This document shows, in pieces, positions 24,824-44,589 of a stretch of DNA of 64,000 nt. The notes below the pieces were generated by a model. The model ran no database searches. It was not told the origin of the DNA and was given only the letters and a program-made list of their open reading frames with translations. The stretch comes from Acidobacteriota bacterium (lineage in GTDB: Bacteria; Acidobacteriota; UBA6911; RPQK01; JAJDTT01). Numbering within the stretch: position 1 is the first letter of the stretch; the number at the start of each line of letters is the position of its first letter. Where the stretch lies: positions 5,280,001 through 5,344,000 of the forward strand of contig OZ242374.1 in the NCBI GenBank assembly GCA_965209055.1, written 5' to 3'. A program made the position numbers and the translations under genes.

Positions 24824-24850
24824 AAAAAGTTGGGAGCGGGAGCGGGGGCT

Positions 24851-24922
24851 GGGGCGGCGGTTTCCTAACCGCCGAACTCCGGTGTAGCAAAGTGGCGACG
24901 GAAGAACGGGCGATTGGAAATC
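24851..24922 (+). repeat. REP doublet truncated at the left att site (core GATTGGAAATC 24912-24922)
   Basis: Hairpin GGCGGTTTCCTAACCGCC; the second hairpin is cut and continues at 44562. Confidence 0.85.
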
Positions 24923-24997
24923 CGTTACCCTATCCAGATGAGTTATGGGATATATCCCTATTTATCAACAGGTTATCCCAATTCTCCCCTGTGATCA

Positions 24998-27992
24998 CTA
25001 CCCCTTGTTTTCTACCCGTTGCCTGTTTGTTGCCTGTTGCGTTTGTGAGTCTTCGTTAGCCTGTGCCTCTCGAATGCTGGCAAGAGCATGCGAACTGACG
25101 TACCCCGCATACCGCATGGTCGTGCTGATCGCCGAGTGGCCCATCAGCTTCTGCACCGTCCTCACGTCCACACCCTGCATCAGCCAGTGGCTGCAACGGA
25201 ATCGCCGCAGGTCGTGAAATCCGACCTTCAACCCCACCCGCTCGGCGGCTCGTCGCAGTGGCTTGTCCGGATTCACCCATCTCGTCCCGGTCCCGCTGTT
25301 GACAAAGACGTATGAGGTGTTCAGGTACCGTGGGAGCCCTGCCAGATATCCGGTGGCGTACTTCGACAGCGGGATCTCCCTTGTCTCGTCGTTCTTGGTG
25401 AATTCCACCCATAGCAGCCTCCGGGATAGGTCCACCCGTTTCCAGGTGAGCCACAACGCTTCTCCCTTTCGTATCCCCGTCTCGCCGATCACTGCGATCA
25501 TGGCTTGCAGGTAAGGGTTGTCTATCGCCTTGACTAGGTCGCGGAACTGTGGAACCGTCAAGGGCCGGAAGACCTTCTTCGGCTCCTTCAGATTGGGGAA
25601 CCGAATCAGCGGGTGCGTGTCCACTTCCCCGCACTCCAGCGCATAGGAAAACAGCTTGCTGATGGCGGCGATGGCGCGGTTCACCGTGGCGGGTTTGACC
25701 TGTTTCTTCCTCTGAGCGACGTAGCGGTGCAGGTCTTTGCGTTGGAACTCTTTCAAGGGTATGTTCCCCAGCATGGCATTGAGGCTCTTGAACGAACCCT
25801 CATAGCTCCGCCAGGAGCGCATGCGAGGTTTGCAGTACTCCTCGAGAAAACGCTCGTAGAAGCTCCGGACCGTCCAGATCGTGCGTTTCCCACCGGCGAG
25901 CTCTTGCTTGAGCTGCTTCCAGGTGCCGTCCAGGATGCTCGACTCGATTCGTGTTTGAAGCGCCTGTGCGCTCCGGTAATTGGGGGCGTACATTCGGAGC
26001 CGACCGGATCCGTTCGGCCAGTACTTGCTGACGACGTACCGTCGTCTCCCCCGGCGATCCTTCACCTTATGTCGCGGTAGGAACGGCGGTTTCCCTCCGC
26101 CCCCCGCACAGATCCGTGCGTGCCCGTTAGGGCACACGGCTCCTGCCTTGGGTCGTTACGGTGAGCCGTTCGCTCGGCCACGGGTGGCGAATCGTCACCG
26201 ACGGCCAGAGAAGCTTGGCCATCTTTCGGAGCCGTCTCCACGTGAAGCGCGCTCGCTGCGACCGGCGGCGCAACACCCGCATCCACTGCTCTCGCAGCCG
26301 ATATCGAAAGCCTTGCAGCCATCGTCCACTTCCGGGGACCGCAAAGTAGTTGAGCCAGCCGTTCAATACGCGGCCCAACCATTTCCCGACCTCCCAGATG
26401 TCGTCGTGCCGGCGTCTTCGCAGCCTCTCCCCCACCCGTTTCAGGGTTCGTTGCATCCGCTTCGCACTCGGTTTCCGCCCCAGCCGGAACCGCCCCTTCC
26501 GGGTCTTCGCACAGTAGTGCGTGAAGCCCAGGAAATCGAACGTTTCCGGTTTCCGCGCCCCGCGTCGCCGCCGATCCGCTGCCGCAAATCGCCCGAACTC
26601 CACCAGTCGCGTCTTTTCCGGGTGCAGTTCCAGTCCGAACTCGGCGCACCGTTCCCCCAGGTCTCGGAGAAACCGCTCCGCGTCTGCCCGCTTCTCGAAT
26701 CCGGCCACGAAGTCGTCCGCATACCGCACCAGGATCGCCTCGCCTTTCGGGACTCGTGGACGCCATTTCCGATGGAACCACTGGTCCAGCACGTAGTGCA
26801 GGTACACATTTGCCAGCACCGGGGAGACGATGGAGCCCTGAGGCGTCCCTTTCCCCGTGTCCGACCGGGTCCCTTCTTCCATCACTCCCGCGTTCAGCCA
26901 CTTGGTCAGGAGCCGCAACACCCGCCGGTCCCCGATCCGATGTTCCACGAACCGGATCATCCAGTCCCGGTCGATCGCATCGAAAAACGTTCGGATGTCC
27001 GCGTCCACGATCCAATTGACTTTCCGCCGTTCGATCCCGTAGGCCAGGGCATCCAGCGCGTCATGCGCCTTCCGTCCGGGCCGGAACCCGTAGCTGAGCC
27101 CGAGAAACTCCGCCTCATAGATCGGCGTCAGGAGCTCGTCCACCACGGCCTTCTGGAGGATCTTGTCCTCCAGTGCCGCGATCCCGAGCGGTCGTGTCCG
27201 TCCGTCCGGCTTGGGGATTCTCACCCGCCGGACGGGAGGCGCCCGGTACGCGCCCCGGTGCACGCGGCGATGCAGGTCCAGCAGTCGCTCTTCCAGCTTC
27301 GCCCCGTACTCCTCCCACCGCACTCCGTCGATTCCCGGGGCCGCATCCTTCCTCAGTCCGAGGTAGGCGCGGCGCAAGGCCTCCACGGTGATATGGTGCA
27401 ACAGCGCGGTCAGTCGCTCCTTGGGGTTTCTCGCTATGGCTCGCCGTATCCGGTCCGCCGCTTGGGACACGCTCCCCCGACTCTGCGTCCGGCGCGTGCT
27501 TTGGCACACCGAATTCCCCTTGGCTTCATCCCTTCGCTCCACCGGCTCCGCCGAGGGTTCCCCCTCTTTGTTCGCCCGCTTCATCGCTACTATGGATGAA
27601 TCCGACTGCTTCGTTTCGTCCATCATGAGGTTCGGTTTGCTCCTTTCTCATGCGGCCCTGGCTCGACCACCGGAGCGAAATGAAGCCCTCCCAGGTCCCG
27701 ACACAAGACGTACGTGCGTGCTTGGGTTCCTAGACACCGCGGTGTCCGTCTGTCCCTCACCTTCCCGGTCCAGCCGGTGTTGCCTTCGACCGCATCCACA
27801 GCCTCGGCACTTCCGTTCCTGCATGTTTCGATGCTCAATAGCCCCGCCCACACGCGCCGCTGCCGACGCTTCGCCGACACCCTCACGGGTGCCAACGCAC
27901 GGCTCGCGGAGAAACGTGGATGGTTAGTCCTTCGTTTCAGCGGACTTTCACCGCTTGTCTTGTGCCAGTTAGCCTGGCGCACAGATGCCCAT
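24998..27992 (-). CDS. int: Tyrosine integrase, spliced: exon 1 27992-27983, exon 2 26070-24998 (360 aa)
   Basis: GGAGGAG RBS then ATGGGCATCT|ATAAGGTG = MGIYKVKDRRG...; catalytic R (TGIRKGE), K (TKN), HDLRR, GHS, Y (MRYA) all present. Confidence 0.9.
25020..25038 (+). promoter_or_regulatory. Integrase arm-type binding site (left)
   Basis: TGCCTGTTTGTTGCCTGTT (tandem TGCCTGTT), identical to 44426-44444. Confidence 0.75.
26071..27982 (-). mobile_element. Group II intron (1912 nt, probably bacterial class E/F)
   Basis: 5' GTGCG at 27982; domain V GAGCCGTGTGCCCTAACGGGCACGCACGGATC (26142-26111); domain VI ending CCTACCGCGAC; RT ORF inside. Confidence 0.93.
26127..27626 (-). CDS. ltrA: Group II intron reverse transcriptase/maturase (no endonuclease domain seen)
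   Basis: RPLGI, SYGFRPGR, GTPQG, YADD, FDFLGF, domain X GWLNYF; no HNH tail. Confidence 0.93.
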   Translation of the reverse strand: MMDETKQSDSSIVAMKRANKEGEPSAEPVERRDEAKGNSVCQSTRRTQSRGSVSQAADRIRRAIARNPKERLTALLHHITVEALRRAYLGLRKDAAPGIDGVRWEEYGAKLEERLLDLHRRVHRGAYRAPPVRRVRIPKPDGRTRPLGIAALEDKILQKAVVDELLTPIYEAEFLGLSYGFRPGRKAHDALDALAYGIERRKVNWIVDADIRTFFDAIDRDWMIRFVEHRIGDRRVLRLLTKWLNAGVMEEGTRSDTGKGTPQGSIVSPVLANVYLHYVLDQWFHRKWRPRVPKGEAILVRYADDFVAGFEKRADAERFLRDLGERCAEFGLELHPEKTRLVEFGRFAAADRRRRGARKPETFDFLGFTHYCAKTRKGRFRLGRKPSAKRMQRTLKRVGERLRRRRHDDIWEVGKWLGRVLNGWLNYFAVPGSGRWLQGFRYRLREQWMRVLRRRSQRARFTWRRLRKMAKLLWPSVTIRHPWPSERLTVTTQGRSRVP

Positions 27993-28090
27993 GCATCTCC
28001 TCCTTTCTGGATCCGGGTTCTTCGCCGTGGCGCGAATCCTACCACGGCTCCAGAGAATCCGCGTAGGCGTTTAGGTCCTCCAGGTCGGAG
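27983..28090 (-). pseudogene. C-terminal remnant of an excisionase-like HTH gene overlapping the int start
   Basis: DLEDLNAYADSLEP...GGDAWAS; would end IR* after intron removal; N-terminus missing. Confidence 0.45.
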
Positions 28091-28139
28091 TCCCGGCGGC
28101 GTCTACCGCTAATTTCGGGTGAACCCCTCCAAGGCGGGT

Positions 28140-28235
28140 GACAAAACAGTCGTCGATGACTTTCGCAAAAAGTCACTGCGCGAGTTGAAGAACATCGAGG
28201 AGGCTTGGCCGGAACCCAACTACGGGCTGACTTGG
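28140..28235 (+). pseudogene. Plasmid RepA C-terminal-like fragment
   Basis: DDFRKKSLRELKNIEEAWPEPNY resembles RepA_C-family termini (from recall, not searched). Confidence 0.4.
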
Positions 28236-28513
28236 GGCGGCCTCACCCACCGGAGCGCCGCTGGGAGATGGTGGGGCTGGTGTGATCAGGACGAACGCCG
28301 TAGTCGCAAGCCCGGGAGTTCGAGACCTCGGCATCGGAGATCCGAAAGTGGGCCAAGCCGGCGGAATCGGAAGAAGGTGCTCCGGAGTGACGGGTCGAAG
28401 ATCTGCCGCTCCTCTCGCCGCCGGGGGAGCCGTGTAATGAAGCCCCTCCAGGCTTCTGTAAGTCTACCCGCTTTGTTCACTCCGATCCCATCGCGCCGAA
28501 AACCGGGAAGTCT

Positions 28514-28766
28514 GACATTTTCAAATGGCCATTGAAAGTTGACACTGGATACGACCGTCTCCCCCCATCTCCTGATTTTTCCTCCGACACTTTCGATCAA
28601 CCTCCGGTATGTATCCCAATGATCGGACCTGCGGCCTGGCTCACCGAAACAATGCGTTGGCCGGCCACGAGTCCAAAGTAGCATCCGCGAATCCTTGCGG
28701 TGGAGCTTGGGTTCCCATGGGCTCCACAGCGTAACGCTAACGTTCAACAACGAAAGGAGACTTACT
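28514..28766 (+). repeat. Conserved non-coding leader, copy A (candidate promoter + structured RNA)
   Basis: Aligns with 34837-35060 and 31061-31223; several hairpins; ends in AAAGGAGA RBS. Confidence 0.75.
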
Positions 28767-29573
28767 ATGGGATGGAAAAGTCCTGACTGGAGCGACGAAT
28801 TTTCGGGAAACAACACGAACCTGGCAAACCGTTCGGGGTGGGATGATTGGTATACGGAACTCCCCATCAACGCTGGAGTGGTGGGAGGCGGGGTTGCCAA
28901 GCTAATCAACGTTGATCCGCCCGGCGGGGACGGCGGTGATGAAGACCAGACGGTCTCCGGGGCTGTGACATCCGCATCCCAGGTTCCGGTACTCGATACG
29001 TCTCCGAACGAACGGAACAAGTGGACTGTCGTCGCGGACTTCTACGCAAAAACTCGGTACAACCCCTTGTGGGGGCATATCGGAATCTTTCTTCGAGTGC
29101 ATGATAGAGATTACCGCAAGGCAGGAGAAGCCGACACCCACCGTGACCAGACTCGGTTCGGGTGCTTCGTACGCGGAGACGAAACCAGGAATACTCCACA
29201 GGCGGCTCTTCAGTTCCATGGAGACAAGGCATCGGCTCCCGATTACAGTAAGCGATACATCCGGCGCTTCGATTTGGACGAAGACCCCTTTGACCACCCG
29301 AATACGAAGTACCGAATCCAAATCATCGAAGAGGAGTGGTTGAGTCCCCTGACCGGTTGGACTCATCGATGGAAGGGAGAGGTATGGAAGAACCCCGGAG
29401 CGAACAACGCTGTTCGAATCGGCCATTACCATTCCATCAGTGAGAACGTCCTGAGTGATCGGGACATCGCCATTCCCTCGCTGTCGGGGTCCAAGATCGC
29501 CTTGGGTAGCGGTCCTGCCCGCGCCGGCGAGGTCCATGTGGACTTTGTGGGCAACGCCGGTTGGGACTACTAA
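28767..29573 (+). CDS. Hypothetical protein A1 (268 aa, no signal peptide)
   Basis: Strong RBS; paralog of 35061-35846 (DFYA, GIFLRV, QTRFGC, EDPF, LSGSKI, GPARAG). Confidence 0.8.
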   Translation: MGWKSPDWSDEFSGNNTNLANRSGWDDWYTELPINAGVVGGGVAKLINVDPPGGDGGDEDQTVSGAVTSASQVPVLDTSPNERNKWTVVADFYAKTRYNPLWGHIGIFLRVHDRDYRKAGEADTHRDQTRFGCFVRGDETRNTPQAALQFHGDKASAPDYSKRYIRRFDLDEDPFDHPNTKYRIQIIEEEWLSPLTGWTHRWKGEVWKNPGANNAVRIGHYHSISENVLSDRDIAIPSLSGSKIALGSGPARAGEVHVDFVGNAGWDY

Positions 29574-30292
29574 GGAGAGTTCACTGGTATCCCGCTGAAG
29601 AACCCGGTTTCCCGGGAGAAGTTCAAGGCGCCTACGGCGATTTGGGTCTCCCCTTGAACGTGAACGAGTCCGGTTATCCCCGTGGACGGAGGGTTGTATC
29701 CGTCTACGGGGACCAACTCTGAGAGAAAACGGCTCAGTCGGCTCATCGGCGCAATCTCCCAGGATCGTTCCTGTGTCTCGGCCGATTTCCATCTTGGATG
29801 GAACCGGACGGTTACAATCTGCTTGCTCCCCGTGGGGTTGACGATTGACACGGTGGTCTCCTCTCCTTTCACCTTCCTTCCATAGAACCGAAAGTCGGTC
29901 CCTGGTGCTACGGCATCGGAGAAGGTCTCAAAGGCTGGTTTCCCGTCACGGTAGACGGTAATGTGGCTCAGGGCCCGAAGGGACCGGTTTGCAGGATATG
30001 TCAGACGCACCCATCCATTCCCGATGAAGTTGCCCTCGAAGTCCGGTTCGAACAGGACCCACTCGAACGAGTTTTGTCCCAGGCCATAAGTCTCCCGGTC
30101 CCCCAGGACAGGACGACCCTCAGCCGTGAACCCATGGGCCCTGAATCGAGAAGAACGCCCCTCGGCCTCCGTGACTATCAAGCCGGTGATGTAGTTGAGG
30201 GTGTTGGGATAGATAGGGGCAATCAGGGTCTTGGTCGTTTCTTGAGCAGAGAAACCCAAAAGGAGATGGAGTGCGACGATCCACGATCTCAT
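29570..30292 (-). CDS. Secreted hypothetical protein B1
   Basis: Signal peptide; paralog of 37909-38646 (LIAPI, VSIVNPTG, SRFLSELV, GET-x-IAV-x-AL). Confidence 0.8.
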   Translation of the reverse strand: MRSWIVALHLLLGFSAQETTKTLIAPIYPNTLNYITGLIVTEAEGRSSRFRAHGFTAEGRPVLGDRETYGLGQNSFEWVLFEPDFEGNFIGNGWVRLTYPANRSLRALSHITVYRDGKPAFETFSDAVAPGTDFRFYGRKVKGEETTVSIVNPTGSKQIVTVRFHPRWKSAETQERSWEIAPMSRLSRFLSELVPVDGYNPPSTGITGLVHVQGETQIAVGALNFSRETGFFSGIPVNSP

Positions 30293-30689
30293 CTAGTAAG
30301 GGCCTCCAGAGGACATCTATACTGGTCAAGTGGTGTCGACCGTCGTTCAGGTAATCCCGACTGGGAATGAAGGTATCCCGGCACGGGGGGAATGTGCAAT
30401 AACAGGGGGCGCTTCGTCTTCGAGGAAGCCGGAAGGATGTGGCAGCCGGTTGCCGGCATTCCTCCTTCGCACGTGTCAAAAAAACCGGACAACTTGACGT
30501 GCCTAATAATAGATCCCCTTTGCCGAGCACCAAGGCTATCTCACGCTAAATAGCCAGCAAATTGCCGGGAGAGCTGACTTTTTCATGCTGGGTCTTATTC
30601 CTCCGGCATGGAAGAATCAGACTTCATCTGGCCCCCCCTTGGTCAAGAACGAGACTCTCCGGCTGGCGCGCCCCGACGAGCGCCGCCGC

Positions 30690-30825
30690 TAGGATGCCAC
30701 CTTGGCCGATCATTACTATCTGGGATTCCAGCAATTTGCCGGTCGCGGTCTGAGCTATGTGGCCGAATACCAGAAGTGTTGGCTAGCCCTGATCGGTTGG
30801 CAATCGGGCGCTTTCAAGTGCCGTC
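30690..30825 (+). pseudogene. DUF4338 (transposase-associated) fragment
   Basis: DHYYLGF...GRGLSYVAEY...WLALIGWQSGAFKC; truncated. Confidence 0.55.
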
Positions 30826-31060
30826 TCCAATCGGAACTCCGCCCCCCGTCCCCCAGACCCTGGCATCCTCCAGCTGGGTCCCGGCCGTTGTGGCCTCATC
30901 AGAGTCCAAACTGGCCCCTTCCGCCCGGACTGAACTCGATGTCGATGGTCACCAACACCTGATCACTTGGTTTCCTCGGCCGAGGATCCTGGCGAACTTA
31001 TCTCCCGTCCCCTCACGTCGTGGAGGACACTCCACGAATGACAAGCGTGAGATCGCCCTC

Positions 31061-31223
31061 GACATTTGCAAATGGCCATTGACAGTGACACTGGATATGA
31101 CCGTCTCCTCCCGCATCTCCTGATATTTCCCCCGACACTTTTCACGAACCTCCGGTATGTATCCCAACAGCCGGACCTTCGGTCTGGTCCACCGAAACAA
31201 CCGGTGGGCTGGATATGAGTCCA
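31061..31223 (+). repeat. Conserved non-coding leader, copy C (partial, diverged)
   Basis: Keeps CCGACACTTT...CCGGTATGTATCCCAA and the GGAC...GAAACAA...GAGTCC hairpin; lacks the RBS-proximal 68 nt. Confidence 0.7.
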
Positions 31224-31614
31224 CACCGGTAAATGCCGTTGGATCGAGATCATTACGGAGACTGCGATAGAACTGCTTGTCAACGATCCTGACCGGATAG
31301 CGTTCCAGTTGGAGCCCGATACCGAATTGGACTCAGACTTCAAGAAACCCGAAGTCAAGACCGGCACCGTCTCTGACAAGGAGCTGGACAAGTGGCCGAA
31401 GTGCTCCATGAAGGGAGTCTACACTCGTCCTGGGCGTTCCGCGCTGTCCATCCAAATTTCGCCAATACGGGGTGAAGGCTTCTGGCGGTAGCTTTACCTC
31501 CGTCGCAGACAATCGAGAGATTCGGGGTGAACATCCACGGGTAGACACGTTTCGTCACACCTGCCCCGCAGCGGGCGATTTCATTGACGTACTGAAGGTA
31601 GAAGGAGGTCCAGA

Positions 31615-31947
31615 ATGACCGAAATAACGTTCAAGGCCGCTCTGACTCCTGCCAGACGACGCCTCGTCGAGGTGATGCAGGAGATCAACTACGGTCGGAT
31701 CGATCGGTTCGAAGTACGCGCGGGGGAGCCGGTACTCGATCCACCACCCAGGGTGGTGTGCCAGATCGTGTTCGGCAAGAACAATGGACCGAACGCTTGT
31801 CGCTACCAGGAGCAATTCGCCCTCAAGAAGCCGGTCTTGGAGTTGTTCGAGATCTTTGATCGGGAGCGGTCGCTCTCAATCCAGGAACTCGTGGTCAGCG
31901 ACGGTTTACCCGTCCGCATGACTGTGGCAGACGCGATCCGAATCTGA
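31615..31947 (+). CDS. Hypothetical protein preceding the sigma-like gene
   Basis: AGGAGG RBS; RRRLVEVMQEINYGRI...GEPVLDPPP...DGLP. Confidence 0.75.
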   Translation: MTEITFKAALTPARRRLVEVMQEINYGRIDRFEVRAGEPVLDPPPRVVCQIVFGKNNGPNACRYQEQFALKKPVLELFEIFDRERSLSIQELVVSDGLPVRMTVADAIRI

Positions 31948-32380
31948 ACCTCTGACTCGATATCAACAGCATTGTCCACACACCAGACAACCGACTGGCC
32001 GCAAGAGACGGAGGTCGTTGTGGGTGTCGCCGAAACCGGCGGCCTCACTGCGCTAACGCATCTTCGTTTGAAAACGGCCGACCCGGAAAAGATCGACACC
32101 CACTCGAGCCTACCCAAGATCCTGTGGAGGCTCAATGGGTTTCGACAAACACGACCACGGCATCGATCCATATGCTATTCGACTCATCAAATACAAAGCG
32201 AGAACGTTGGTGGGAAAAGCGGGATTTACGGCATCAGATCGCGAGGATCTGGAGCAGGAGTTGATCCTCGACCTGCTACACCGACTGCCGAGATACGACC
32301 GCAACCGCGCCCAGCGCAACTGGAGTTGACCCGCTTTCGTGGACACATCCAAAGTAAGGAAGTGAAAGGAGGAGTCCACG

Positions 32381-32695
32381 ATGGCAAGAAAGCAGCGGCG
32401 GTACCCGCCGGAGTTCCGCCAGGAGATCGTGGCGCTGGTGCGCTCGGGGCGATCGCCCGAGGCGCTGGCGCGGGAGTTCGAGCCCTCGGCGTCGGCGATC
32501 CGCAAGTGGGTCAAGCAGGCCGATCTGGACGAGGGGCACCGTAACGACGGGTTGACGACGTTCGAGCGCCAGGAGTTGCGCCAGGCGCGGCGCGAGATCA
32601 AGCGGCTGCGGATGGAGCGGGACATCTTAAAAAAAGCCGCGGCTTGGTTCGCCCGGGAGAGCGACTCGATCCCCGAAAAGGATTCAAATTCGTGA
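32381..32695 (+). CDS. IS3 transposase OrfA
   Basis: RRYPPEFR HTH, ERDILKKAAAWF; A7G slippery site at 32629-32636. Confidence 0.9.
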   Translation: MARKQRRYPPEFRQEIVALVRSGRSPEALAREFEPSASAIRKWVKQADLDEGHRNDGLTTFERQELRQARREIKRLRMERDILKKAAAWFARESDSIPEKDSNS

Positions 32696-33561: not shown

Positions 33562-34419
33562 GAACGACGCCGGCACGGCCACCGTCGCACCCAGCGTCGC
33601 GCGCGACACGATTGAAGGGGGCAGGGGGGCGCTGCCCCCCTGAGACCCCCGGATGCAAAGAGACATAAAAAACTCTTAAATCCCTGGGAAGAGAGACCGA
33701 GGCCCCCTCGTTAAGCGGTATCCCATTGTGGAAAATCAGAGATTTCCCACAACGTGAGCCCTTTTGCTGACCCGTCCATAGGTCGCCCCTCACACGAAAG
33801 AAAGAGCGCTCTGTCCGTTGTCAATGGCCAAAACCCTGACATCCTCGATGGCCATTGACCGTCGTCGGGGGGAAGTCTTGCTCCCCACCGACAGAAGGAG
33901 TATTAAACCTAAGGACAACGTAGACCGCACCAATAAACCGTCCACGAAAACGGGACACCCTCACAACACTTTCATCGCCCGGGTAGTCGAGCACAAGATC
34001 GCCAACCTCATCAAGGCACAGAAGGCTGGCATTCGCGACTACCGGCGCTGCCGCTGTTCTCTGAACGATCGGTTCGAAGACGAAGACGGTCGCTCCGTCG
34101 AGCGGATAGATACCCTGGATCAGGAGCGCAACGGGCCGCACACTGGCACGCAATCGAGGCCCTCCGACGAACTTCGCTTTCTTGCCATCGACATGGGCTT
34201 CGTACTCGAAACCCTTCCTCCCGAACTCCGCGACCTGTGTCAGCGCCTCGTAGCGGAAACCGTCACCGAGATCTCCCGCAGCACCGGTGTGCCGCGGGGA
34301 ACGATCTACGAGTCCATCAAGAGGCTCCGGAAAATCTTCAGGGACGCCGGCCTGAAGGATTACCTGTGACGGCTCCGACGGTCGTAAGGGCCTGCCGCCG
34401 CAGAAGCAGCGTCCGACGA

Positions 34420-35846: not shown

Positions 35847-36029
35847 AAACCGTCCGCTGACAGTTCGGGGGGCAGACGATGCCTGACAATGGATCTGGTG
35901 AACAATCTGGGAGTCTTCGTCCGATATGCGAAGAAACTCCAGCCAGGTCTTGCCTCTGTTCCGAAGATCGGAGAATAAGGCGAGAGTCTCTTGATCGGAT
36001 TCGGAGAACTTCTCCACATAATCCGCTAG

Positions 36030-37659
36030 CCCGGAAAATTCACAAATGAGTGGACGGGGCTGGTGTGAGAGTCGAAAGAAAGGCCATGCCTCATTGATAT
36101 AAAAGGGTTTACTAAAAATCGACCCTTCAATGAGGTGTGGCCATGTGCAAAACAGATTGCGCGCCGAGTTTGCCATTTCACCCCGACAGAAAAATCACCG
36201 CTTGTTTCGATGGTGGCCGCATCACCTCCGATGCCAGGCTGCTGCTGCTTTACGCCCTGGATCGGCAACATCGCGTCAGTGAGGGTGTCAGCGCCTGTCT
36301 GAAGGATCGAAGAGATGTCCGCTATGTGCGCCACTCCATGCGGGAGATGATCTGCCAACGTCTGCATCAGATTCTCTGCGGCTACGAGGATTGCAACGAC
36401 GCCCAGACGTTGCGGGCGGACCCGATCTTCAAGACCGTCTGTGATCGCTTGCTCGAGAGTGGTCCAGACCTGGCCGCTCAGCCCACGTTGTGTCGGCTGG
36501 AAAACGGCGTCCAGCGCTCGGAACTGATGCGTCTGGGTCGCTGGTTGTTGCAGCTGTACCTGCGTCGGCTCATGAAGCGTCGGCCCGACAGCATCGTGCT
36601 GGACCTGGACGGCACCGACGATCCCACCCATGGCCAGCAGGAGTTCTCCTTCTACCACAGCTACTATCGAAGCCACATCCTGCATCCCCTGTTGATCTTC
36701 GATGGGGAGAGCGGGGATCTGTTGGTGGTGCTGCTGCGACCGGGCAAGAAAGGCGCCGCCGCACACTCCGTGGCCGTCTTGCGGCGAGTGGTCGAGGCCA
36801 TCCGAGCGGCGTGTCCCCGGGTGAAGATCCGGGTTCGAGCCGACTGCGGCTTTGGCACGCCGGAACTGTCGAATACTGTGAACAAGCGGGGTTACGCTAC
36901 GAGATCGGCCTGATCCGAAACACGCGGCTGCAGCAGGCGGCCGAGCCTGTGCTGGAGCGCACCCGGGAGCAGTTTCAACAAGAGGGGACCCCGCAGCGAG
37001 AGTTCGATGCGTTCCTCTATCAGGCCGGAACCTGGTCCCATCCCCGCCGGGTGGTGGTGAAAGTCGAGGTCAACTCCCGCGGGATCAACCGTCGTTTCGT
37101 GGTGAGTAATCGGACCGACCCGTCACCCCGATCGCTGTACGAGGACTACATCGACCGAGGTCAGACGGAAGACTATATTAAGCCCGTCAAGCTCCACTTG
37201 AAGAGGACCGCCTCAGTTGCCATCGCTTTCTGGCCAATCAGTTCCACTTGTTGTTGCACAGTGTGGCATACCAGATGTTCCTGATGCTGCGGGATTACCT
37301 TTACGGGACCCCCTGGCAGAAGCTGGAAGTGGAGACGTTGCGTCGTCGGATGCTCAAGATCGGAGTTCGAGTTCGGGAAACGACCCGCCGCATCTGGATC
37401 CACTTGAGCTCGGCCTACCCCGAGCAGGAGATCTTCTGGCGGGTGATGGGTCGATTACATCCGACGTAGTTGCCACCAGTCGCCACAACAACCCCGTTCG
37501 CGAACTCTCAAAGGAGGACGAGTCTCCGTAAAACAGTCTCCTGGAGGTTCACCGGCCACACTGGAGCCGAGCGGAAGGCTGAATCCCAGAACCCAAGCTC
37601 TAAGACCTACGATGCCGGCGAAAATCGAGCCCCTTTGTCGAGTTTATGAATAATGGCGG
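36030..37659 (+). mobile_element. IS1380-family element (1630 bp), TSD CTAG
   Basis: CTAG at 36026-36029 and 37660-37663; imperfect IRs CCCGGAAAATTCACAAA / CCGCCATTATTCATAAA. Confidence 0.8.
36137..37469 (+). pseudogene. IS1380 transposase, frameshifted twice
   Basis: FDGGRITSDA, GYEDCND, LDLDGTDDPTHGQQE, RADCGF spread across three frames. Confidence 0.85.
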
Positions 37660-37908
37660 CTAGGGTCTTCGCTTCTTCTATGTCTACTCCCGAATTTTGG
37701 GGCAGGCCATTGGGGTTCGAACCCCTGGCCAAGGTAGTTGAATCAGCTATAGATACCTATGGAATACAGTCTCGCGAAGCTCATTTCCTAACGCTAGCTG
37801 GGCAAATCCTAAGAGAATCCGTAGTGCCCATACTACTGTCTCGGGAGCCACGTTTTCCGGGAACTCCGAAAGTTCAGAACCGGTGATGTGTTTCATCTGA
37901 AAGGTTCT

Positions 37909-38646
37909 CTATCGGTCCGGTGTCGGGTAAGGACTGACGATAACCGAACGGAACCAGTCGGTGCGTTTCGAGTATTGCAACGCGGCGACGGCGATTCGTG
38001 TCTCCCCACGGATTCGGAGAACGCCCTGGATGACGCCGTTGTCCCCTGTCCTCACTCCGTCCAGGTCGACCAGTTCCGACAGGAACCGGCTGTGTTTGAC
38101 GTACGGACCCAGAACCACCTCCGAGTGGCGCCGTTGGGTCCCGTCCAGGTCCCAACGGACGAACTCGACCGACATCCGTTGGGACTCTCCCGTGGGGTTC
38201 ACGATGGACACCCCGGTCTGTCCCCCGGGTGACCTCTCCGCGAGCATCCAGAAACCGGGTCCCGGACGGAACGTCTGGACCACGAAAGGCTCCACGGACC
38301 GTGTCTCGTGACCGATTCTGACGACCGCGTGAGCCTGATCCGGGTTGTCGATGGTGACGAGAAGCCAACCATTGTCGGTGAATCTGCCGACCGCGATGTC
38401 AACGCCCCCATCGTGGTCCTGGATTTGGTCGTCCCCGTGGGGATAGGTCGCGGAGTAATTGTTGTCCCCATTCTCCCGGAACTCCCGGACCGAGACCTCG
38501 GTGTCGCCCCGTCCGTTTGAGATCAACAGGAGGGTGGAGTCCAGACCTCCGATCTGAGGGAAGATGGGCGCGATGAGCTGAGTCTCGACGTTTTCCCAGT
38601 AAAATGGAGTCTGTAGGAGGAATGATAAGAGGAACGTGAGTTTCAT
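37909..38646 (-). CDS. Secreted hypothetical protein B2, paralog of B1
   Basis: Start MKLTFLLSFLL; LIAPIFP, GVSIVNPTG, SRFLSELV, GETRIAVAAL. Confidence 0.8.
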   Translation of the reverse strand: MKLTFLLSFLLQTPFYWENVETQLIAPIFPQIGGLDSTLLLISNGRGDTEVSVREFRENGDNNYSATYPHGDDQIQDHDGGVDIAVGRFTDNGWLLVTIDNPDQAHAVVRIGHETRSVEPFVVQTFRPGPGFWMLAERSPGGQTGVSIVNPTGESQRMSVEFVRWDLDGTQRRHSEVVLGPYVKHSRFLSELVDLDGVRTGDNGVIQGVLRIRGETRIAVAALQYSKRTDWFRSVIVSPYPTPDR

Positions 38647-39101
38647 GTCCCCATAATACACGCCCCGAATCAATTTACGGGACTGGCGCAGGCTGGAACT
38701 CTCCGCTACACGGTCCAAGCTGTTGTTGTCGGGATGGGAGGCTTGCCGGTTATCTCCGTCTTCTCCCCTGATCTAGTCACAGCAACTCGATCAACCGTGT
38801 TCGGATACCGTCGGAAAACCCCGTGACCTTTTGGACGAACCCGATAGGGTGTTGGACATCCACACCTATGGAGTTGCGGATAGTGACCGCCTTGGACGGG
38901 TCCTTGAACCAGAACCGACAGATTTGCTTCCTCGGGCTGAAGCCGCGGGAGGAGACGATTGGAAGTAGGAGTGCGGACGCGATCCGTCTGAACGCATGGG
39001 GTTCTGCTCGACGTTGATTGGGTAGGGTCAGAATTCAGGCGGCGTGGTGTCGACTACATCTTCGTCTCTATTTTGTGGATTGAGCCCTTTGTTCTTTGTC
39101 G

Positions 39102-39446
39102 TCATGACCTTCCGCTCGCGCGAACTTTGCTGACCACCGAGAGCAGGCCTTCCGCTGCATTTAGAACCTGGGTGACCTGTTGAAGCTTTGCCAAGGCGGT
39201 TTTCAGACCGTCGATGCCTGTGAGAAGACCCTCTTCGTTTTCTTTCAAGCCGTCACGAATGTCTGCCAGGGCCAGGTTCCCGATACGCAGCCTCGCCGCT
39301 TGGGTCTCCAAGAGCACTCTTCCGGCTCGATCAATCTCTTCCTTGGTCCTCTCCCGCAAGGCCAAATGCCATTCGGGAGACATCATTCGCACTACCGTAT
39401 TCCGCAGTTGCCGAACTGTTTCGATTCGAATCTTGAACGGCGCCAT
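39102..39446 (-). CDS. Hypothetical helical protein
   Basis: RBS (GAGGA); starts 5 bp after the upstream lipoprotein stop; heptad Leu pattern. Confidence 0.65.
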   Translation of the reverse strand: MAPFKIRIETVRQLRNTVVRMMSPEWHLALRERTKEEIDRAGRVLLETQAARLRIGNLALADIRDGLKENEEGLLTGIDGLKTALAKLQQVTQVLNAAEGLLSVVSKVRASGRS

Positions 39447-39451
39447 GGGAC

Positions 39452-40447
39452 CTAATCCTCTGTACCCTCAGCAATCGCTTCCAGAAAAGCAACGAGTTCA
39501 CCCATGTCATGAACCAACGCAGCAATGTTGGGTTCACGCCCTTCCACAAGGGCCACAAAGCTCATCTTCAGGTTCTTCGCAGCATCCGCCGTCGCGGCGA
39601 CACTCGAAAGCAGCAACGTCGATGTCAGCACGGTCTTGCGATCCTCTTTCCACCCCGATGGAAGGGTGCCGCTGCCTTGGAAAGGATCGATGATCCTCTC
39701 CGTTTCCAACGATTGCAGGCGCACCAGCAGATCTGTCTCCAGATCTTCGGAAATAAAGGACATTGCGCTCTGCTGGATCTCGAGTTCTCTTTCCAGCGTC
39801 CCAACGCGTTTCTTCAACTCACTCTCCAGTTCCTTCTTCTGAAAGTTCCCGACCACGATTTCGACGACTGGACCAATAAAATCCAATACCGGCTGCCCAC
39901 CGATCTCAGCACCCCGGATGCGGCTGTTGAGGTTTCCCAACGCCTGGAATACTCCATCGGCCGATCTTCCCAGATCTCCTCGGGTCTCCCTGTCCGCCAG
40001 AGCCCCGAGCTGAATGAAGTAAGCCTTCAGCAGGTTGGCATGACGACGAAGGTCGGCCAACAGAGACAATCGCTTCTTCAGAAGAGCGTTGTGCTCGACA
40101 ATTGCCTTCTGGCGTTTCTCCGGTGTCATGTTCTGACGCAGCCGGATGAGTATGGTGCTGTCTCCGTCTATGGCTGCCGCTCCGGCTTCTTCAATGAGCA
40201 GCCCAGTGGCATCCGCATACGCAATGCCCGCCCGGGAGAACTCCCTGAACTGGTTGAGTCGTGCTGTCGCGCACGAGGTCGCGAGTAGCAAGAGAAGAGC
40301 TATTGAACTTCTTGATAGAGGACAAGATCTGAGATTGGATCGCCAACATGAAAAAATTGTCTTCTCCTGACTCGGGCTCTTGAAGCCCGGAATGTATCTC
40401 CTGCAACTCACCCGGAAAAGCATCTTCTCAGTCGCAGGCATTAACAT
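39452..40447 (-). CDS. Hypothetical helical lipoprotein (start uncertain)
   Basis: Lipobox-like LLLLLATSC near 40275; long amphipathic helices. Confidence 0.7.
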   Translation of the reverse strand: MLMPATEKMLFRVSCRRYIPGFKSPSQEKTIFSCWRSNLRSCPLSRSSIALLLLLATSCATARLNQFREFSRAGIAYADATGLLIEEAGAAAIDGDSTILIRLRQNMTPEKRQKAIVEHNALLKKRLSLLADLRRHANLLKAYFIQLGALADRETRGDLGRSADGVFQALGNLNSRIRGAEIGGQPVLDFIGPVVEIVVGNFQKKELESELKKRVGTLERELEIQQSAMSFISEDLETDLLVRLQSLETERIIDPFQGSGTLPSGWKEDRKTVLTSTLLLSSVAATADAAKNLKMSFVALVEGREPNIAALVHDMGELVAFLEAIAEGTED

Positions 40448-40522
40448 TTTCCTTCCCCCATCAACGCAGACCTTGGGAAAATCTAAACGTAGCCTTCTCT
40501 TGGATCAGCCCGACTAACGCGG

Positions 40523-41362
40523 TTACCTTCCCTTGGCCCGGGTCGCCTTATTGGCACCTGTCGCACGCAGGTGTGAGATTCTGCTCAGCAGATCGAACCA
40601 GAATGGCGCACCGAGACTGATCGCCATGACCGTCATGATCCACCCGACGATCATTCGAAAAGTGATTTTCGGGAAACCTCCCGGATAGCCGATCGGAAAC
40701 GTCCCGATCTGCTTTTCCGCGTTAATCAAGATAGCGTCTTCGTTGCTGCCCGCTTTGCCGGCCTCGGCCGCAATCACCGTGCGCAACGCATCGTTTTTCC
40801 ACAACTGCTCGGCGATATGGATCGAGTCGGCGTTGAAAGCAACCGTAACGACCATGGCGATCGCCAGCAGGAAATACTTGACCTGGCGCTTATACCAGCC
40901 GGAGACTCGGTCCATGCCGTCGTCGAACCACGCGGACAGTCGCTGCTTAGTGCCATCGACTGTGTCCTCGTCCGTTTTCACCAGGCTGAGCAGAAGATCT
41001 CGCGCGGGATTGGCACTCTCCATCTCTTTGATGGTGTCGCGGAGTTGGCAGGCGGTCAGCTCGCTTACGCTTTTCCCGGCCTTGTCCCTGGCAACGACTT
41101 CGAGAAGCGCGGCGGTGAAAATCTCAGGCTGGATATACGAGGGCAACTTGCCCGGCTTGCGCAGGCCCTTGATCAGCGGATGTTTGTAGATTGACCGTGC
41201 GTACTCGCTGCCTATGAGGTTCTTGATGCCCTTCTCAAGATTCTTGGAGCGGAGACCGAAAATACTGGCGATAATCTCCTGTATCGAGCTGCAAACCAGA
41301 CTCAGCAGCACGTAGAAAAAGATCAGTCCGATAGCGACGTCCACAATCGGGGTGTCCAGCAT
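40523..41362 (-). CDS. Hypothetical membrane protein
   Basis: GAGGAG RBS; DVAIGL, LPSYI, WFDDGMDRVSGWYKR, SLGAPFWFDLL. Confidence 0.8.
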   Translation of the reverse strand: MLDTPIVDVAIGLIFFYVLLSLVCSSIQEIIASIFGLRSKNLEKGIKNLIGSEYARSIYKHPLIKGLRKPGKLPSYIQPEIFTAALLEVVARDKAGKSVSELTACQLRDTIKEMESANPARDLLLSLVKTDEDTVDGTKQRLSAWFDDGMDRVSGWYKRQVKYFLLAIAMVVTVAFNADSIHIAEQLWKNDALRTVIAAEAGKAGSNEDAILINAEKQIGTFPIGYPGGFPKITFRMIVGWIMTVMAISLGAPFWFDLLSRISHLRATGANKATRAKGR

Positions 41363-41583
41363 CAATCTCTCCTCTCTTTGGGTTGGTCGCTACCCTGCAT
41401 TTCTCACCACATGGAACAAGGAACGGAAAATGAACCGCTGTGTGGGCGATTCTTCATCCATATGACCTTCCCGCTGGCCCACTCCAACTGCCGGACAACT
41501 TCCATCTCCGTCGCGATCCTCCGCTTCAACCAGTCCCCCTTGGATACGCCTGTCACCGAGCCGCGACTGAGGCTTCGCCATGT

Positions 41584-41955
41584 TTATTTCTCCATGACGA
41601 GACCGATCAGAAAGCTCACCAAGCCGCCCACGGCGGCTCCCAAGGTCAGCATCAGGCCGACCACCTTCCACATGGTTTCAACGCCCATCTTGTCGGATAG
41701 CCCGGTCTCAAGGGTCTTGATGTCCTTCGCGTGCCGGTGCAGATCTTCCTGGACGCTGTGCATGAGGAGGTCGATCGTTTCCTTGTCCGATTTTTTTTCG
41801 ATCTCGCGCTCGATCTTATCGAGGCGCACTTGAATCTCACGACGATGATCGTCGAGGATGCCGCGGAACTCGTTTCGCCAAGACTCGAAGGTTCGCACGA
41901 GTAGGCGCTCGCTCTCCTTCCAGTCAAAGTGCTGGCCCGGATGTGACTCGTCCAT
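41584..41955 (-). CDS. Coiled-coil protein with C-terminal TM helix (holin/XhlA-like)
   Basis: AGGAGG RBS before MDESHPG; charged coiled coil then a hydrophobic tail. Confidence 0.6.
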   Translation of the reverse strand: MDESHPGQHFDWKESERLLVRTFESWRNEFRGILDDHRREIQVRLDKIEREIEKKSDKETIDLLMHSVQEDLHRHAKDIKTLETGLSDKMGVETMWKVVGLMLTLGAAVGGLVSFLIGLVMEK

Positions 41956-42039
41956 GGGGTCCTCCTTGTTGCCACCAAGCGTGGGAAGTCTTGTGGAACG
42001 TCTCTCCACAAATGATTTGGGGCATGGTGTCGGGTTGTG

Positions 42040-43560
42040 GTTATGGCCTGATGGTTACCCATTCTTCAGCGCCGGCATTGACGGTGTCCCCGGTGTCTGG
42101 ATCGAGTAAGACCGAGTGCTGCGGTCAAAAATAGGGCGAGTGGCCGTAGGTACTTCTTGTGTTCCGGCGTTTTGATTCGTCACGATGCTCGTTCGGGGCG
42201 GATTCCGCACCTGCTTCCCTCCGGATTCCGCCAAACCTGGGGGCCGTTCGTCCAGGACCAGAAACATTCCGGTGTCGTCATTGTCGCCATAGCGCAAGCA
42301 ACGGGAACTCAGCCAGACCAGGTTTCTTTGCCGGAGCGGAACAACACCGGAATCACCCTCCGGTATCGGCCCCAGTGGCCCGAATCGTTGTCGCCGCTCT
42401 CACAGGATCACCATTTGCCTTTCCAACGGTGCATGTCGATCGCTTCATGCTGGTATTGGCTTTCGTATCCAGTTGCGGCTGATGTGGCCCGGCTCAGCGG
42501 GGTCAGTCTTTTGATCTTGATCGGCGTGACGGACAGGGTCGGAAAGAGTTCTTCGTATTCCACGACGAATGTGAAGATTTACCCAAACCGTTGCATGTTT
42601 CGCTGCTGGGAATAAATGCCAATCCCGTCGCGTCAAAAAGTCGCCAACTCGTTTTCCAGACGGGATAACTCGATGGATCTGTGTCTTCCGGTTACTTTTT
42701 GCTGTCTTGGAAGACGAACCGGTTGCTCTCGCGGACGATATTGGCCATCAGCACCTGTCCCTCAATCTGAATTCGGAACGTCGACCGGATCACTCTGAAC
42801 TCGTTGCGTCGGTTTCCGTCCACACTACGATCATCTGTAGGCTCCAGCGAATACCTACCGTCGCGTCGGCAAAAGTGTCGGCCAGACCTCCGGTGCGGAC
42901 AGGGATCGGTCAATCGGCCTAATCTTCAGTCCGTTGAATGTACGGAATCCGGTTTCGCCTGGATTATTCGGTGCGCCGTGGAAAGGCGCTTTCTCTTAGC
43001 GGGTGCGAAACCCTCACGACGACTGTCGCTTCAGCCGGTAGCAGTCGGAGGGGGGCAGCAGGCCGGGGGCACGGTCGTCAGGACAAACTCTCTCCCGACA
43101 TGGGTGATTCGGCGTCCGTCTTCACCAGAGTCTGATTTGGCCGTTCCTTTTCTCGGCCCGTTCCCGATAGCGCGCCGCCCGCAGGGCGTGCTGGCAACGC
43201 TCACACAGGGGTCCACGATCCGGGTGTCTGGTTTGCACCGGGTGCAGCAGTGCCGCTCCATCCACTGCCAGAGGGTTTCGGTGAGATCCCCGCAATGGTC
43301 ACAATGCTGTTCACCCGGATCGACTCGAAAGTCTCGGTAGCCGGCGCAGGTTCGCTCGAAACTCATCGATGTCTCGACCGGTGCCCGTGTCCAGACTCGC
43401 AGAATTCCCCGCATCGGGAACGGTTCGGACAGTCGCCTCGATAGCCACAGTTCGGGCAGCGATAGGAGTGTCGTCTTCGCAGCCGGACCACCTCCTGCTT
43501 CCTGAGGGTCTCCAGCCGTTCCTCGTGGATATCAGGGACGCGCTCATGCGCCCCATCTTG
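42040..43560 (-). pseudogene. Fragmented, possibly phage-derived genes incl. Cys-rich (CxxC) pieces
   Basis: Broken frames MANIVRESNRFVFQDS..., LLDPDTGDTVNAGAEEWVTIRP*, YRCPNCG, HCDHCG...CCTRC. Confidence 0.35.
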
Positions 43561-43603
43561 CCCGTCACGGGTGTCATTTTGGGCCTTCCCGCAGGGATCA
43601 ATG

Positions 43604-43842
43604 GGACGGGAGCGCCCCCCCCAGGGGGTGTTGCGCAGATGTGAATCGCGCAACACCCCCGCGCCCGCACTGGGCGGCAAAAAGGGGGGGTCGCTCCCGT
43701 CCACCTCTATTTTCCCCGTGCGGCCACCCGGTGGCCGGAAATGGGGCCGTAACTGACTGAAAGAAAAGAAGCTCGGGGAGAGTGCATTTGTGAATCACCG
43801 GGACCGCTTTTTGTGAATCCACCCCCTTTGTCCCATTCACAT
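43604..43842. other. Structured non-coding element with repeated TGTGAAT boxes
   Basis: 11-bp outer IR (43604-43614/43692-43702), 13-bp inner IR (43624-43636/43648-43660), four TGTGAAT motifs. Confidence 0.65.
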
Positions 43843-44216
43843 CCCGGATCGGGCGCGAGACCCTCTTTTCGCACTGCCGAAACGAGCCTCCATTGGCCCT
43901 TGCGACTGCCAAATGCGTTCAACGTCAATCACGACCTGGAAGGAGCGACTTTCCGCCGCTGGTTGCAACTCGACCGCCCGCTTCAGTGCGGCCGTCACCC
44001 CGCCACAAGAGACGAATCGGGGGCAACCAGGTCTTTTTCGGCGTTACCGATGGTCACGGCGGTTTTACGCCCAACTGTCAAAACATTGGACGCGTAGGAT
44101 GGCCCCTGTTGACCTGAAACAGGCGGACGAAGGGTCTGGCGCCTTTGATTCGGAGGCGTGAGAAGGAACCCTGCGCACAATGGCGGCGCGGCGTATTTCG
44201 TGGTAGCGTCCAACCC

Positions 44217-44387
44217 ATGATTCTGGCCCTTGCGCTTCTCCTCGCCGTCGTCGCCTGGGTCTGCTACGCCGTCGCCCGCGCCCTGGACGCGAGTCTTGAA
44301 GAGGCGGACCGCCAGGCGGCTGCGGTGTTGGCAAACGATCGTCGAATCGCATTCACGATGTCTCCGAGCATCGGGAATACGAGGTAA
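44217..44387 (+). CDS. Small membrane protein
   Basis: MILALALLLAVVAWVCYAVARA hydrophobic N-terminus, 56 aa. Confidence 0.4.
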   Translation: MILALALLLAVVAWVCYAVARALDASLEEADRQAAAVLANDRRIAFTMSPSIGNTR

Positions 44388-44425
44388 GGGAAAAAAGCGT
44401 GTCGGCTTTCAGGAGCAAAATCTAC

Positions 44426-44444
44426 TGCCTGTTTGTTGCCTGTT
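44426..44444 (+). promoter_or_regulatory. Integrase arm-type binding site (right)
   Basis: Identical to 25020-25038, about 105 bp inside the right core. Confidence 0.75.
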
Positions 44445-44550
44445 CAGCACGCCAGACATGGGGAGTCAACCACTTTACCGATTCGGCGAAGAACCCGGTA
44501 TTCCATTGAAAACGTTAATGTTTAGTAGTTATTGACTGAGGGACGGTTGG

Positions 44551-44569
44551 GATTGGAAATCGCCCCTCC
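44551..44569 (+). repeat. Right att core GATTGGAAATC plus remainder of the REP hairpin (GCCCCTCC)
   Basis: Joins to 24908-24922 to give GGGCGATTGGAAATCGCCC. Confidence 0.85.
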
Positions 44570-44589
44570 TTTTGGAGAGTGGAGGGCTG

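Follow-up and report, generated by a model that had tools for sequence, protein, structure and literature searches.

Tyrosine integrases are the textbook case of single-site specificity, and repetitive extragenic palindromes (REPs) are landing sites for insertion sequences (ISs) that are driven by transposases. The REP-targeting ISs include IS621 of the IS110 family, as well as IS1397 and ISKpn1 of the IS3 family, which use DEDD or DDE transposases and, for IS621, a bridge RNA. Lambda integrase needs identity of the overlap between its two attachment (att) sites, and its use of secondary sites ('saf') can change the overlap that is carried. Here, we analyzed a 64,000-nt stretch of DNA (hereafter, the window) from an Acidobacteriota bacterium (genome G000 in our comparisons; GenBank assembly GCA_965209055.1, contig OZ242374.1, positions 5,280,001–5,344,000 of the forward strand). 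Window positions 24923–44561 very probably are an integrative element that was put by a lambda-Int-type integrase into the second hairpin of a host REP doublet, and whose lineage switched to this target from tRNA-Arg.

Islands in tRNA genes have been counted in the Islander database, including 2,083 islands with an anticodon-centred attP and, by the tDNA fragment that is carried, 159 islands with a 5' fragment compared with 3,760 with a 3' fragment (PMC4383910). Given these 159 islands, the ancestral type of the present lineage is therefore a known one, and the rarer of the two. Like the anticodon-centred tRNA islands, the element described here has a tyrosine integrase at one end, a proposed crossover in a 7-nt loop between inverted stem halves, and a partial tRNA copy that is carried along; its nearest outgroups, in genomes G003 and G010, are real members of that group in tRNA-Arg genes. 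Unlike those islands, it targets a REP hairpin (tens of copies), has nothing to restore, carries a decayed tRNA piece in its attP, and belongs to a family with 26 copies in the genome, and, unlike most of them, its lineage carries the rare 5' tRNA half. Regeneration of the target tRNA gene, by which tRNA islands are recognized, was found in the G003 and G010 outgroups and is not seen here. The REP-targeting ISs share with this family the abundant neutral landing sites that REP or palindromic-unit repeats offer, as well as the small size and multiple copies of the elements, whereas here the recombinase is of the lambda-Int type, the att arms are long, and the cargo reaches 25 kb. The sole gene common to all elements encodes a tyrosine integrase, which leaves no DEDD or DDE transposase as the mobilizing enzyme. 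Compared to lambda integrase, the three-domain, two-site-binding architecture is alike (by structure model and fold match), and the differences are that the overlap changed naturally at least five times in one genome and that the targets are a repeat family. We found no report of a REP-targeting tyrosine integrase in the literature searched, which is not proof of absence. The original prediction, made from the window sequence, held that this integrase uses a multicopy REP-like repeat as attB; new here are the scale of the family, the derivation from the tRNA-Arg anticodon loop with a fossil tRNA half, and the repeated change of the overlap.

The insert of 19,639 bp is flanked by a direct repeat of the 11-mer GATTGGAAATC (24912–24922 and 44551–44561, both on the + strand), which occurs at these two sites only within the window and does not extend to either side. 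Upstream lies a phosphotriesterase (PTE) gene (23852–24823, + strand; PF02126, E 1.8e-72), followed by the left part of the host REP doublet (24851–24911, aligned with a REP copy at 18600–18695 and with an intact doublet in genome G001). This part contains hairpin 1 of the doublet, CGGCGGTT-tcc-TAACCGCCG (24855–24874), then a spacer and the 5' stem of hairpin 2. The attL core (24912–24922, + strand) is an 11-bp identity block with a proposed 7-bp overlap, TTGGAAA, at 24914–24920. It is followed by the P' arm (24923–24997), which, read on the minus strand, is a decayed tRNA-Arg 5' half (D-arm and 5' anticodon-stem strand) with the core at its end. At the right end, the P arm (44400–44550, + strand) is a conserved right-end module that leads into the attR core (44551–44561, + strand; proposed overlap 44553–44559). 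Beyond it are the right part of hairpin 2 (GCCC) with a CTCC tail (44562–44569), assigned from the flank sequence and the comparison with G001, and a gene for a SelA/DgaE-like pyridoxal phosphate enzyme (44590–45783, + strand; PF03841, E 1.8e-10). Joining the two flanks in silico yields GGGCGATT-GGA-AATCGCCC with the CTCC tail and also rebuilds hairpin 1 upstream; the resulting ~85-nt doublet can be aligned over its whole length to the reverse-complemented copy at 18600–18695, with a few mismatches and two short gaps. The latter region holds an unoccupied doublet of the same family (18610–18685, - strand). The boundaries that had been proposed for the island, with all their coordinates, and the proposal that its removal rebuilds a hairpin and a REP doublet were thus borne out.

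The same locus was compared among relatives. Five same-genus genomes carry an ortholog of the DgaE-like gene (89–98% identity), each directly next to the PTE gene. In G001, an intact REP doublet with an unbroken hairpin, exactly the predicted attB, lies between these two genes, and an integrase of this family had no match in the G001 genome. The empty site that the original prediction proposed to look for in related genomes thus exists. In the other four relatives (G002, G004, G005, and G008), no REP lies at the locus, and the ribosome-binding site of the next gene comes immediately after the PTE stop codon. The prediction had named relatives without an intact REP between the flanking genes as evidence against it; four of the five are of this kind, because the REP itself would be a later insertion there, and G001 has the intact repeat. 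The order of events at the locus would so be that the REP inserted first and the island afterwards. The REP doublet in the PTE/DgaE intergenic region (window 24824–24922 and 44562–44589) was found in G000 and G001, and it is missing also from G008, the closest relative by the DgaE-like gene (98%). This patchy distribution could reflect repeated gain, precise loss, or exchange between strains.

Based on copy number and distribution, the target belongs to a repeat family of the genus. The 11-mer GATTGGAAATC, whose exact count across the genome had been suggested as a check, occurs 104 times in the 6.08-Mb genome compared with ~3 expected (an arithmetic estimate), and the 17-mer GGCGATTGGAAATCGCC has 79 copies compared with none for the reversed control; abundance on this scale is therefore not due to chance. 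The 17-mer is present in all eight genomes of the genus (7–79 copies), including the integrase-free G001, and in none of eight genomes from seven other genera, and the reversed control was absent from every genome scanned. In the G016 genome, only the flanking-gene queries had matches (paralogs); the integrase, the REP 17-mer, and a structured repeat described below had none. A census of perfect 8-3-8 hairpins returned 419, with four related types dominant at 25–49 copies each; counts by type were CGGCGGTT-tcc/gga (49), GGGCGATT-tcc/gga (48), CGGCGATT (25), and GGGCGATT-aga/tct (14). By the counts of the GGGCGATT hairpins, the class that was hit in the window therefore has dozens of free sites. 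The repeat has the features of REPs, i.e., a short GC-rich palindrome that is intergenic, genus-specific, and present in many copies and in doublets, and the two hairpins of the doublet read as related and inverted (REPIN-like). In G003, there are 58 copies of the 17-mer and a single integrase match, which lies in a tRNA gene. To judge by this distribution, the REP belongs to the host and does not depend on the elements. Two matches to PF01797 (Y1 HUH/IS200-like) were found at genome positions 1142970–1143203 (- strand; 30.8 bits) and 3750831–3751106 (23.6 bits). The former, in the region 1141470–1144703, lies within a 307-codon open frame beside REP hairpins and adjoins the left end of another element of the family (element 5); this Y1 transposase at 1.143 Mb may be the REP-associated tyrosine transposase (RAYT) of the REP family.

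The island is one of many in its genome. Full-length integrase copies number 26 (88–94% amino acid identity by tBLASTn), with one frameshifted copy and a few fragments in addition, and each of the 26 lies about 100 bp from a left junction. The right-end module (~150 bp; BLASTn) has 30 copies of 78–100% identity, with the core at the end of each. Pairing by position and orientation resulted in 26 elements of 2,692–25,072 bp with the integrase at one end, of which seven are shorter than 3.6 kb and contain the integrase and non-coding DNA only. Both junctions were resolved for 25 elements (by eye for elements 7, 12, and 23; the remaining junction rows were computed), and all lie in REP-type hairpins at different loci. 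Removal in silico restores a REP-type hairpin with the CTCC tail in 25/25 cases, and every rebuilt site has a CCTCC/GGAGG tail on one side. The 11-bp core of the window copy was found in three other elements of this genome and in one each of G005 and G007, in REP doublets at unrelated loci. The empty site in G001, the same-core elements elsewhere, and the 25 restored hairpins support the multicopy REP-like hairpin as the attachment site, as originally proposed.

Element 26 (6074477–6077182) is cut by the contig end 62 nt past the integrase stop codon, inside the P' arm, so that it lacks a left junction. Its sequence does not resume at the start of the contig, showing that the assembly was broken or linearized within a copy of the repeat. 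Right-end modules without a nearby integrase were found at four positions in G000 (416742, 474713, 484433, and 4708503), two of them facing outward about 10 kb apart. In G004, 28 matches to the right-end module compared with nine to the integrase suggest that integrase-less derivatives are common.

Past the integrase stop codon of every element, a sequence like a tRNA 5' half (D-arm, one base, and a 5-nt stem strand) is followed by 7 nt and then by host DNA, and the same 7 nt recur at the opposite end, beside the conserved P arm. The end-to-end identity block is 15, 14, 11, 10, or 7 bp long and always includes these 7 nt at the hairpin centre, which correspond to tRNA positions 32–38 in the register of the vestigial tRNA. 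Because four elements (8, 12, 14, and 17) share the 7 nt alone, strand exchange was placed within them. Of the 22 attB rows that were computed, 19 have three to seven Watson-Crick pairs immediately next to the 7 nt, and in the remaining three (loop TTTCCTA) the stem is shifted by one base. Within this genome and in the tRNA register, the loops are CTGTTAG (nine elements with both junctions resolved, with element 26 probably the tenth), CTAACAG (eight elements), TTTCCAA (five elements, including that of the window), TTTCCTA (four elements), and TTTCTAA (one element); CTGTTAG and CTAACAG represent one host hairpin that was entered in two orientations. G004 adds four further loops (CTTCCAG, TTTCTAG, CTTTTAG, and CTTTCCT; left junctions only). 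Nine loop classes thus exist across two sister genomes, with integrases 88–94% identical to the window copy.

The integrase of the window is encoded on the minus strand in two exons, join(27992–27983, 26070–24998), of 360 codons. Exon 1 (27983–27992, ATGGGCATCT) is preceded by a GGAGG ribosome-binding site and was aligned to an intron-less paralog at genome positions 4721929–4723008. Exon 2 (24998–26070), from codon 4 to the stop, matches PF00589 (E 3.6e-25; 1.1e-26 for the intact paralog), and its boundary was set by comparison to the intron-less paralog. An alignment of 32 homologs of 30–90% identity shows no variation at the catalytic residues R205, K230, H290, R293, H316, and Y325. An AlphaFold model (predicted local distance difference test, pLDDT, 87.9) shows an N-terminal three-stranded sheet and a helix, then core-binding and catalytic domains. 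In the predicted N-domain, the strands span residues 3–8, 14–21, and 28–33 and the helix residues 36–52 (pLDDT 83–90). Full-length lambda integrase (1z1b_A) aligned to the model over 349 columns; further matches, to XerA, Tn1549 Int, and IntI, cover the two C-terminal domains. Pfam arm-binding domains had no match in the N-terminal 60 amino acids even at E <= 5. The model fits a lambda-Int-like, heterobivalent integrase with a predicted arm-binding N-domain. The homologs make up a small family of about 165 proteins at E <= 1e-10, with no family name beyond 'integrase'.

Candidate sites for such a domain lie inside both ends of the element. The 19-mer TGCCTGTTTGTTGCCTGTT is found at 25020–25038 and 44426–44444, both on the + strand, 98 and 107 bp inside the cores, and it has 26 occurrences in the genome. 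It holds TGCCTGTT twice, 11 bp apart, giving one pair on the P' side and one on the P side. At least one TGCCTGTT occurs in 26/26 right ends, and the left-end motif is at the matching place in 25/26 elements, the 26th being beyond the contig end. These pairs share one orientation, lie about 100 bp inward from both element ends, and may be arm-type sites. The original prediction had identified the 19-mers as arm-type sites about 100 bp inside each end; their positions hold, and the left copy turned out to lie within the 3' end of the integrase open reading frame (ORF), 19–30 nt from the stop codon.

Between the exons, a group II intron of 1,912 nt occupies codon 4 (26071–27982, - strand; starting with GTGCG and ending with AC, boundaries from the alignment with the intron-less paralog). 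It shows the features of this class, namely the domain RNA (Rfam RF02005, domains 1–4, at 27725–27948, 160.7 bits; RF00029, domains 5/6, at 26071–26144, 41 bits), GUGYG...AY ends, and an encoded reverse transcriptase (RT)/maturase (26127–27626, - strand; PF00078 [RVT_1], E 2.8e-36; PF08388 [GIIM] weak, E 8.4e-4, below cut-off). The genome contains three copies of this intron with identical RT, all at codon 4 of different integrase paralogs (three of 26 genes), the other two at about 784.2–786.1 kb and 3708.0–3710.0 kb; the shared position shows that the intron homes into this integrase gene. The intron-less joint (26068 to 27983) was present in contigs of three sequencing runs. Cargo was considered as a reading of the RT beside the integrase, and the Rfam matches, the RT domain, and the mapped ends identify it instead as the protein of the group II intron; this identity and the shared codon position also rule out a retron and an RT partner of a DIRS-like integrase. 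A working integrase from the window copy would be produced by splicing of the intron.

The ancestry of the integrase points to tRNA genes. In G003 and G010 (integrases of 83% and 71% amino acid identity), the integrase gene is followed by an intact tRNA-Arg (TCT and TCG, respectively) with the tRNA 5' end nearest. The G003 element has its right-end module 47 kb away, and this is followed by a displaced tRNA 5' half that starts in the anticodon loop; the crossover of this element is therefore in the anticodon loop, with the 5' half provided by the element. For homologs at 40–52% identity, the neighboring gene is tRNA-Arg or tRNA-Leu in the usual orientation, its 3' end being the one closer to the integrase. 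In a maximum likelihood tree (midpoint-rooted, after removal of four rows with stops or truncation), all 35 REP-associated integrases group together (support 100/92), with G003, G010, and other tRNA-associated sequences as successive neighbors. By this nested position, the REP-targeting integrase is most simply a descendant of a tRNA-Arg anticodon-loop integrase. Close homologs at tRNAs had been named as evidence that would count against a REP target; the 83% homolog of G003 is one, and it stands as an outgroup of the REP-targeting clade. The two orientation classes, A and B, are not resolved from each other in the tree, whose branches are very short, and gene conversion among the REP-clade integrases is likely.

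The attP arm preserves traces of the same origin. In sister copies, the P' arm reads GTAGCTCAGTTGGACAGAGC-A-CCGGA and then the loop, compared with GTAGCTCAGCTGGACAGAGC-A-ACGGA in the real tRNA-Arg(TCT) of G003 and G000; the G000 gene is unoccupied and identical to that of G003. ARAGORN called no tRNA on 21 rebuilt attP sequences (elements with a repeat of at least 10 bp), the tRNA half being too decayed or incomplete. The anticodon arm (ACGGA-CTTCTAA-TCCGT) and the REP hairpin (GGCGA-TTTCCAA-TCGCC) differ at two positions within the inner 11 bp.

In mechanistic terms, hairpin 2 of the host REP doublet would have received the element through conservative site-specific recombination. The REP hairpin would be the attB core, its two stem halves would act as inverted core-type binding sites, and the central TTGGAAA would be the overlap region of strand exchange, a geometry like that of a tRNA anticodon stem-loop; the exact cleavage positions proposed here are deduced from the identity blocks. 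The ancestral lineage would have used the tRNA-Arg anticodon loop as its target and carried the tRNA 5' half in its attP. Within the genus, it would then have switched to REP hairpins, followed by diversification of the 7-nt overlap and multiplication within genomes. A further step, to which we give slightly less than an even chance, is that a tRNA-Arg integrase was re-targeted to REPs that mimic the anticodon arm and gave rise to an IS-like multiplying family, with the overlap repeatedly re-written by copying of target loops at imperfect sites.

Copies at different sites are identical or nearly so. Elements 16 and 24 are 100% identical over 2,778 bp, and elements 8 and 14 over 10,537 bp apart from an intron in element 14, with unrelated flanks on both sides in each pair. 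Elements 11 and 26 are 99.96% identical and differ in their right flanks (the sole comparable side), and elements 2 and 9 are 99.18% identical. Because 100% identical copies occupy different sites, these comparisons indicate recent movement of the elements, and the window copy itself may still be active. The attP junction expected from excision is ...GGACGGTTGG-GATTGGAAATC-CGTTACCC... Two contig records that join about 24875 to 44551 were considered as an empty site and rejected: between the two positions they hold 24–38 other letters, which are other REP doublets. Of the 20 sequencing runs that contain the flank, 14 have a readable label, which is sponge metagenome, and six carry coded organism names.

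The observations so far bear on three other explanations. In an integron-like mechanism, the REP would be recognized as a folded single-stranded or cruciform hairpin, in the manner of IntI and attC, and not as a duplex with a 7-bp overlap. With integron integrases and attC sites, the family has in common a tyrosine recombinase and imperfect palindromic targets of variable sequence; all targets are hairpins whose structure is kept while the stems vary by class (GGGCGA, GGGGGA, and GGGGGT), and the integrase weakly matches NCBIfam integron-integrase models. We nevertheless consider this mechanism improbable. The model scores are far under the cut-offs (TIGR02249, 63.3 bits compared with 265; NF011946, 27.5 compared with 435), and, unlike in integrons, the integrase is part of the mobile unit and a cassette array is lacking. 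The predicted arm-binding N-domain and the long conserved arms at either side make the architecture lambda-like, the ancestors integrate at tRNA genes in an anticodon-centred way and leave a displaced fragment, and the identity blocks of 7–15 bp centred on the loop fit a duplex overlap.

It is more improbable still that the hairpin halves belong to the elements, so that the 'REPs' would be footprints or solo ends and not a host repeat. The GGGGGACT class agrees best with that idea, since about 28 of the 37 occurrences of its 15-mer are at element ends, and right-end modules without integrase do exist in the genome. It is contradicted by G001, which has REP hairpins, including the one at the PTE/DgaE locus, but no integrase match, and by G003, where the only integrase match is in a tRNA gene despite the many REP 17-mers; moreover, nothing in the element ends corresponds to hairpin 1 of the doublet, and a candidate RAYT-like Y1 transposase gene is flanked by such hairpins. 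Least credible of all is a spread by homologous recombination or segmental duplication, with the 11-bp repeat as a target-site duplication made by a DDE transposase of the island. The island does contain an IS3-family element and a broken IS, but these are internal, 7–12 kb from the ends, and elements of 2.7 kb have no DDE gene. The repeat sequence is also constant within each class and present in the reconstructed attP too, and identical copies have unrelated flanks.

Several observations weigh against insertion by the integrase into a multicopy host REP, or against present activity of the window copy. The term multicopy host repeat is weaker for the class of hairpin GGGGGACT-aac/gtt-AGTCCCCC, with seven perfect free copies compared with 18 occupied ones. 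The left candidate arm site lies in coding sequence, so that its conservation could be protein-driven, and TGCCTGTT is not enriched across the genome (193 copies compared with about 185 expected by an arithmetic estimate). An excisionase-like gene was not found in the island, and the minimal elements of 2.7 kb have no convincing ORF besides the integrase and no transposase. The integrase of the window is split by the intron, which makes a working enzyme dependent on splicing, and two ISs, one of them broken, have inserted into the island. Assembled contigs of four runs covering 24750–44700 contained neither an attP circle nor an excision product nor a polymorphic insertion. Finally, the genome is a metagenome-assembled single contig whose end lies inside element 26. 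Even with these points, integration into REP hairpin 2 by the lambda-Int-type integrase is the explanation we hold with confidence.

Apart from the integrase and its intron, the island holds an IS3-family insertion sequence (32381–33561, + strand; orfA 32381–32695 and orfB 32644–33561; PF00665 rve and HTH_21, with NCBIfam transpos_IS3 on orfA below cut-off), a cargo ORF with weak similarity to sigma factors of the extracytoplasmic function (ECF) type (33818–34369, + strand; TIGR02937, E 1.6e-4, below cut-off; phrog_1740, E 8e-7), and a broken IS with a DDE_Tnp_1_4 transposase over two frames (36137–37284, + strand; PF13701 in two consecutive ORFs, profile positions 6–239 and 231–345). Most island ORFs received no name from Pfam, NCBIfam, or PHROGs, and the same databases recognized no phage or conjugation genes in the island. 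Two ORFs near the right end, 44065–44352 (- strand) and 43813–44097 (+ strand), were considered as a second conserved gene or an excisionase and rejected, as their translations are of low complexity and not protein-like. An Rfam scan of 24000–46000 (E <= 0.1) returned the intron only, plus a sub-threshold molybdenum cofactor (Moco) match inside it, and ARAGORN found no tRNA in the window. A direct repeat of 130–210 nt has three copies in the island (28542–28765, 31090–31222, and 34837–35060), 72–91% identical and beside unnamed ORFs, and a related 26-mer lies at 42352.

A structured non-coding repeat of about 170 nt is located near the right end (43595–43775), with no codon periodicity (0.133/0.107/0.118), nested stems, and no Rfam match. 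Its parts are an outer stem (GACGGGAGCGA/TCGCTCCCGTC), a C7/G7 stem, and a 14-bp hairpin (GGGGGTGTTGCGCA...TGCGCAACACCCCC), and an alignment of 50 copies showed compensatory changes at two pairs. At least 50 copies exist in the genome, in the elements examined (including a minimal one of 2.7 kb) and in clusters outside elements; genome positions 814794, 815552, 816435, 467752, and 2677343 are among them. The repeat was found in all eight genomes of the genus, including the integrase-free G001 (13 matches), and at 85% identity in G023, a genome of another family (seven matches). Two 85-nt 'tRNA-Val' calls by ARAGORN (5203736–5203820 and 3841235–3841319) coincide with copies of this repeat and are probably false.

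With a lambda-type integrase that has a repeat family as its attB and reaches 26 copies in a single genome, the distinction between integrative islands and insertion sequences becomes less sharp. How this evolved can be traced in the tRNA-targeting outgroups, the fossil tRNA half in attP, and a target that resembles an anticodon arm. This bears on the preference of integrases for tRNA genes, because a symmetric stem-loop would be a ready-made core site. Closely related integrases with different 7-bp overlaps allow changes in overlap and core specificity to be studied as a natural experiment, and they are a possible source of multi-site landing tools; if the re-targeting and repeated re-writing of the overlap are true, they would form a naturally occurring set of near-identical integrases whose specificities differ and are easily re-set. 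For the organism itself, an uncultured, sponge-associated lineage of Acidobacteriota, REP repeats would gain a cost or a function as the landing sites of these elements.

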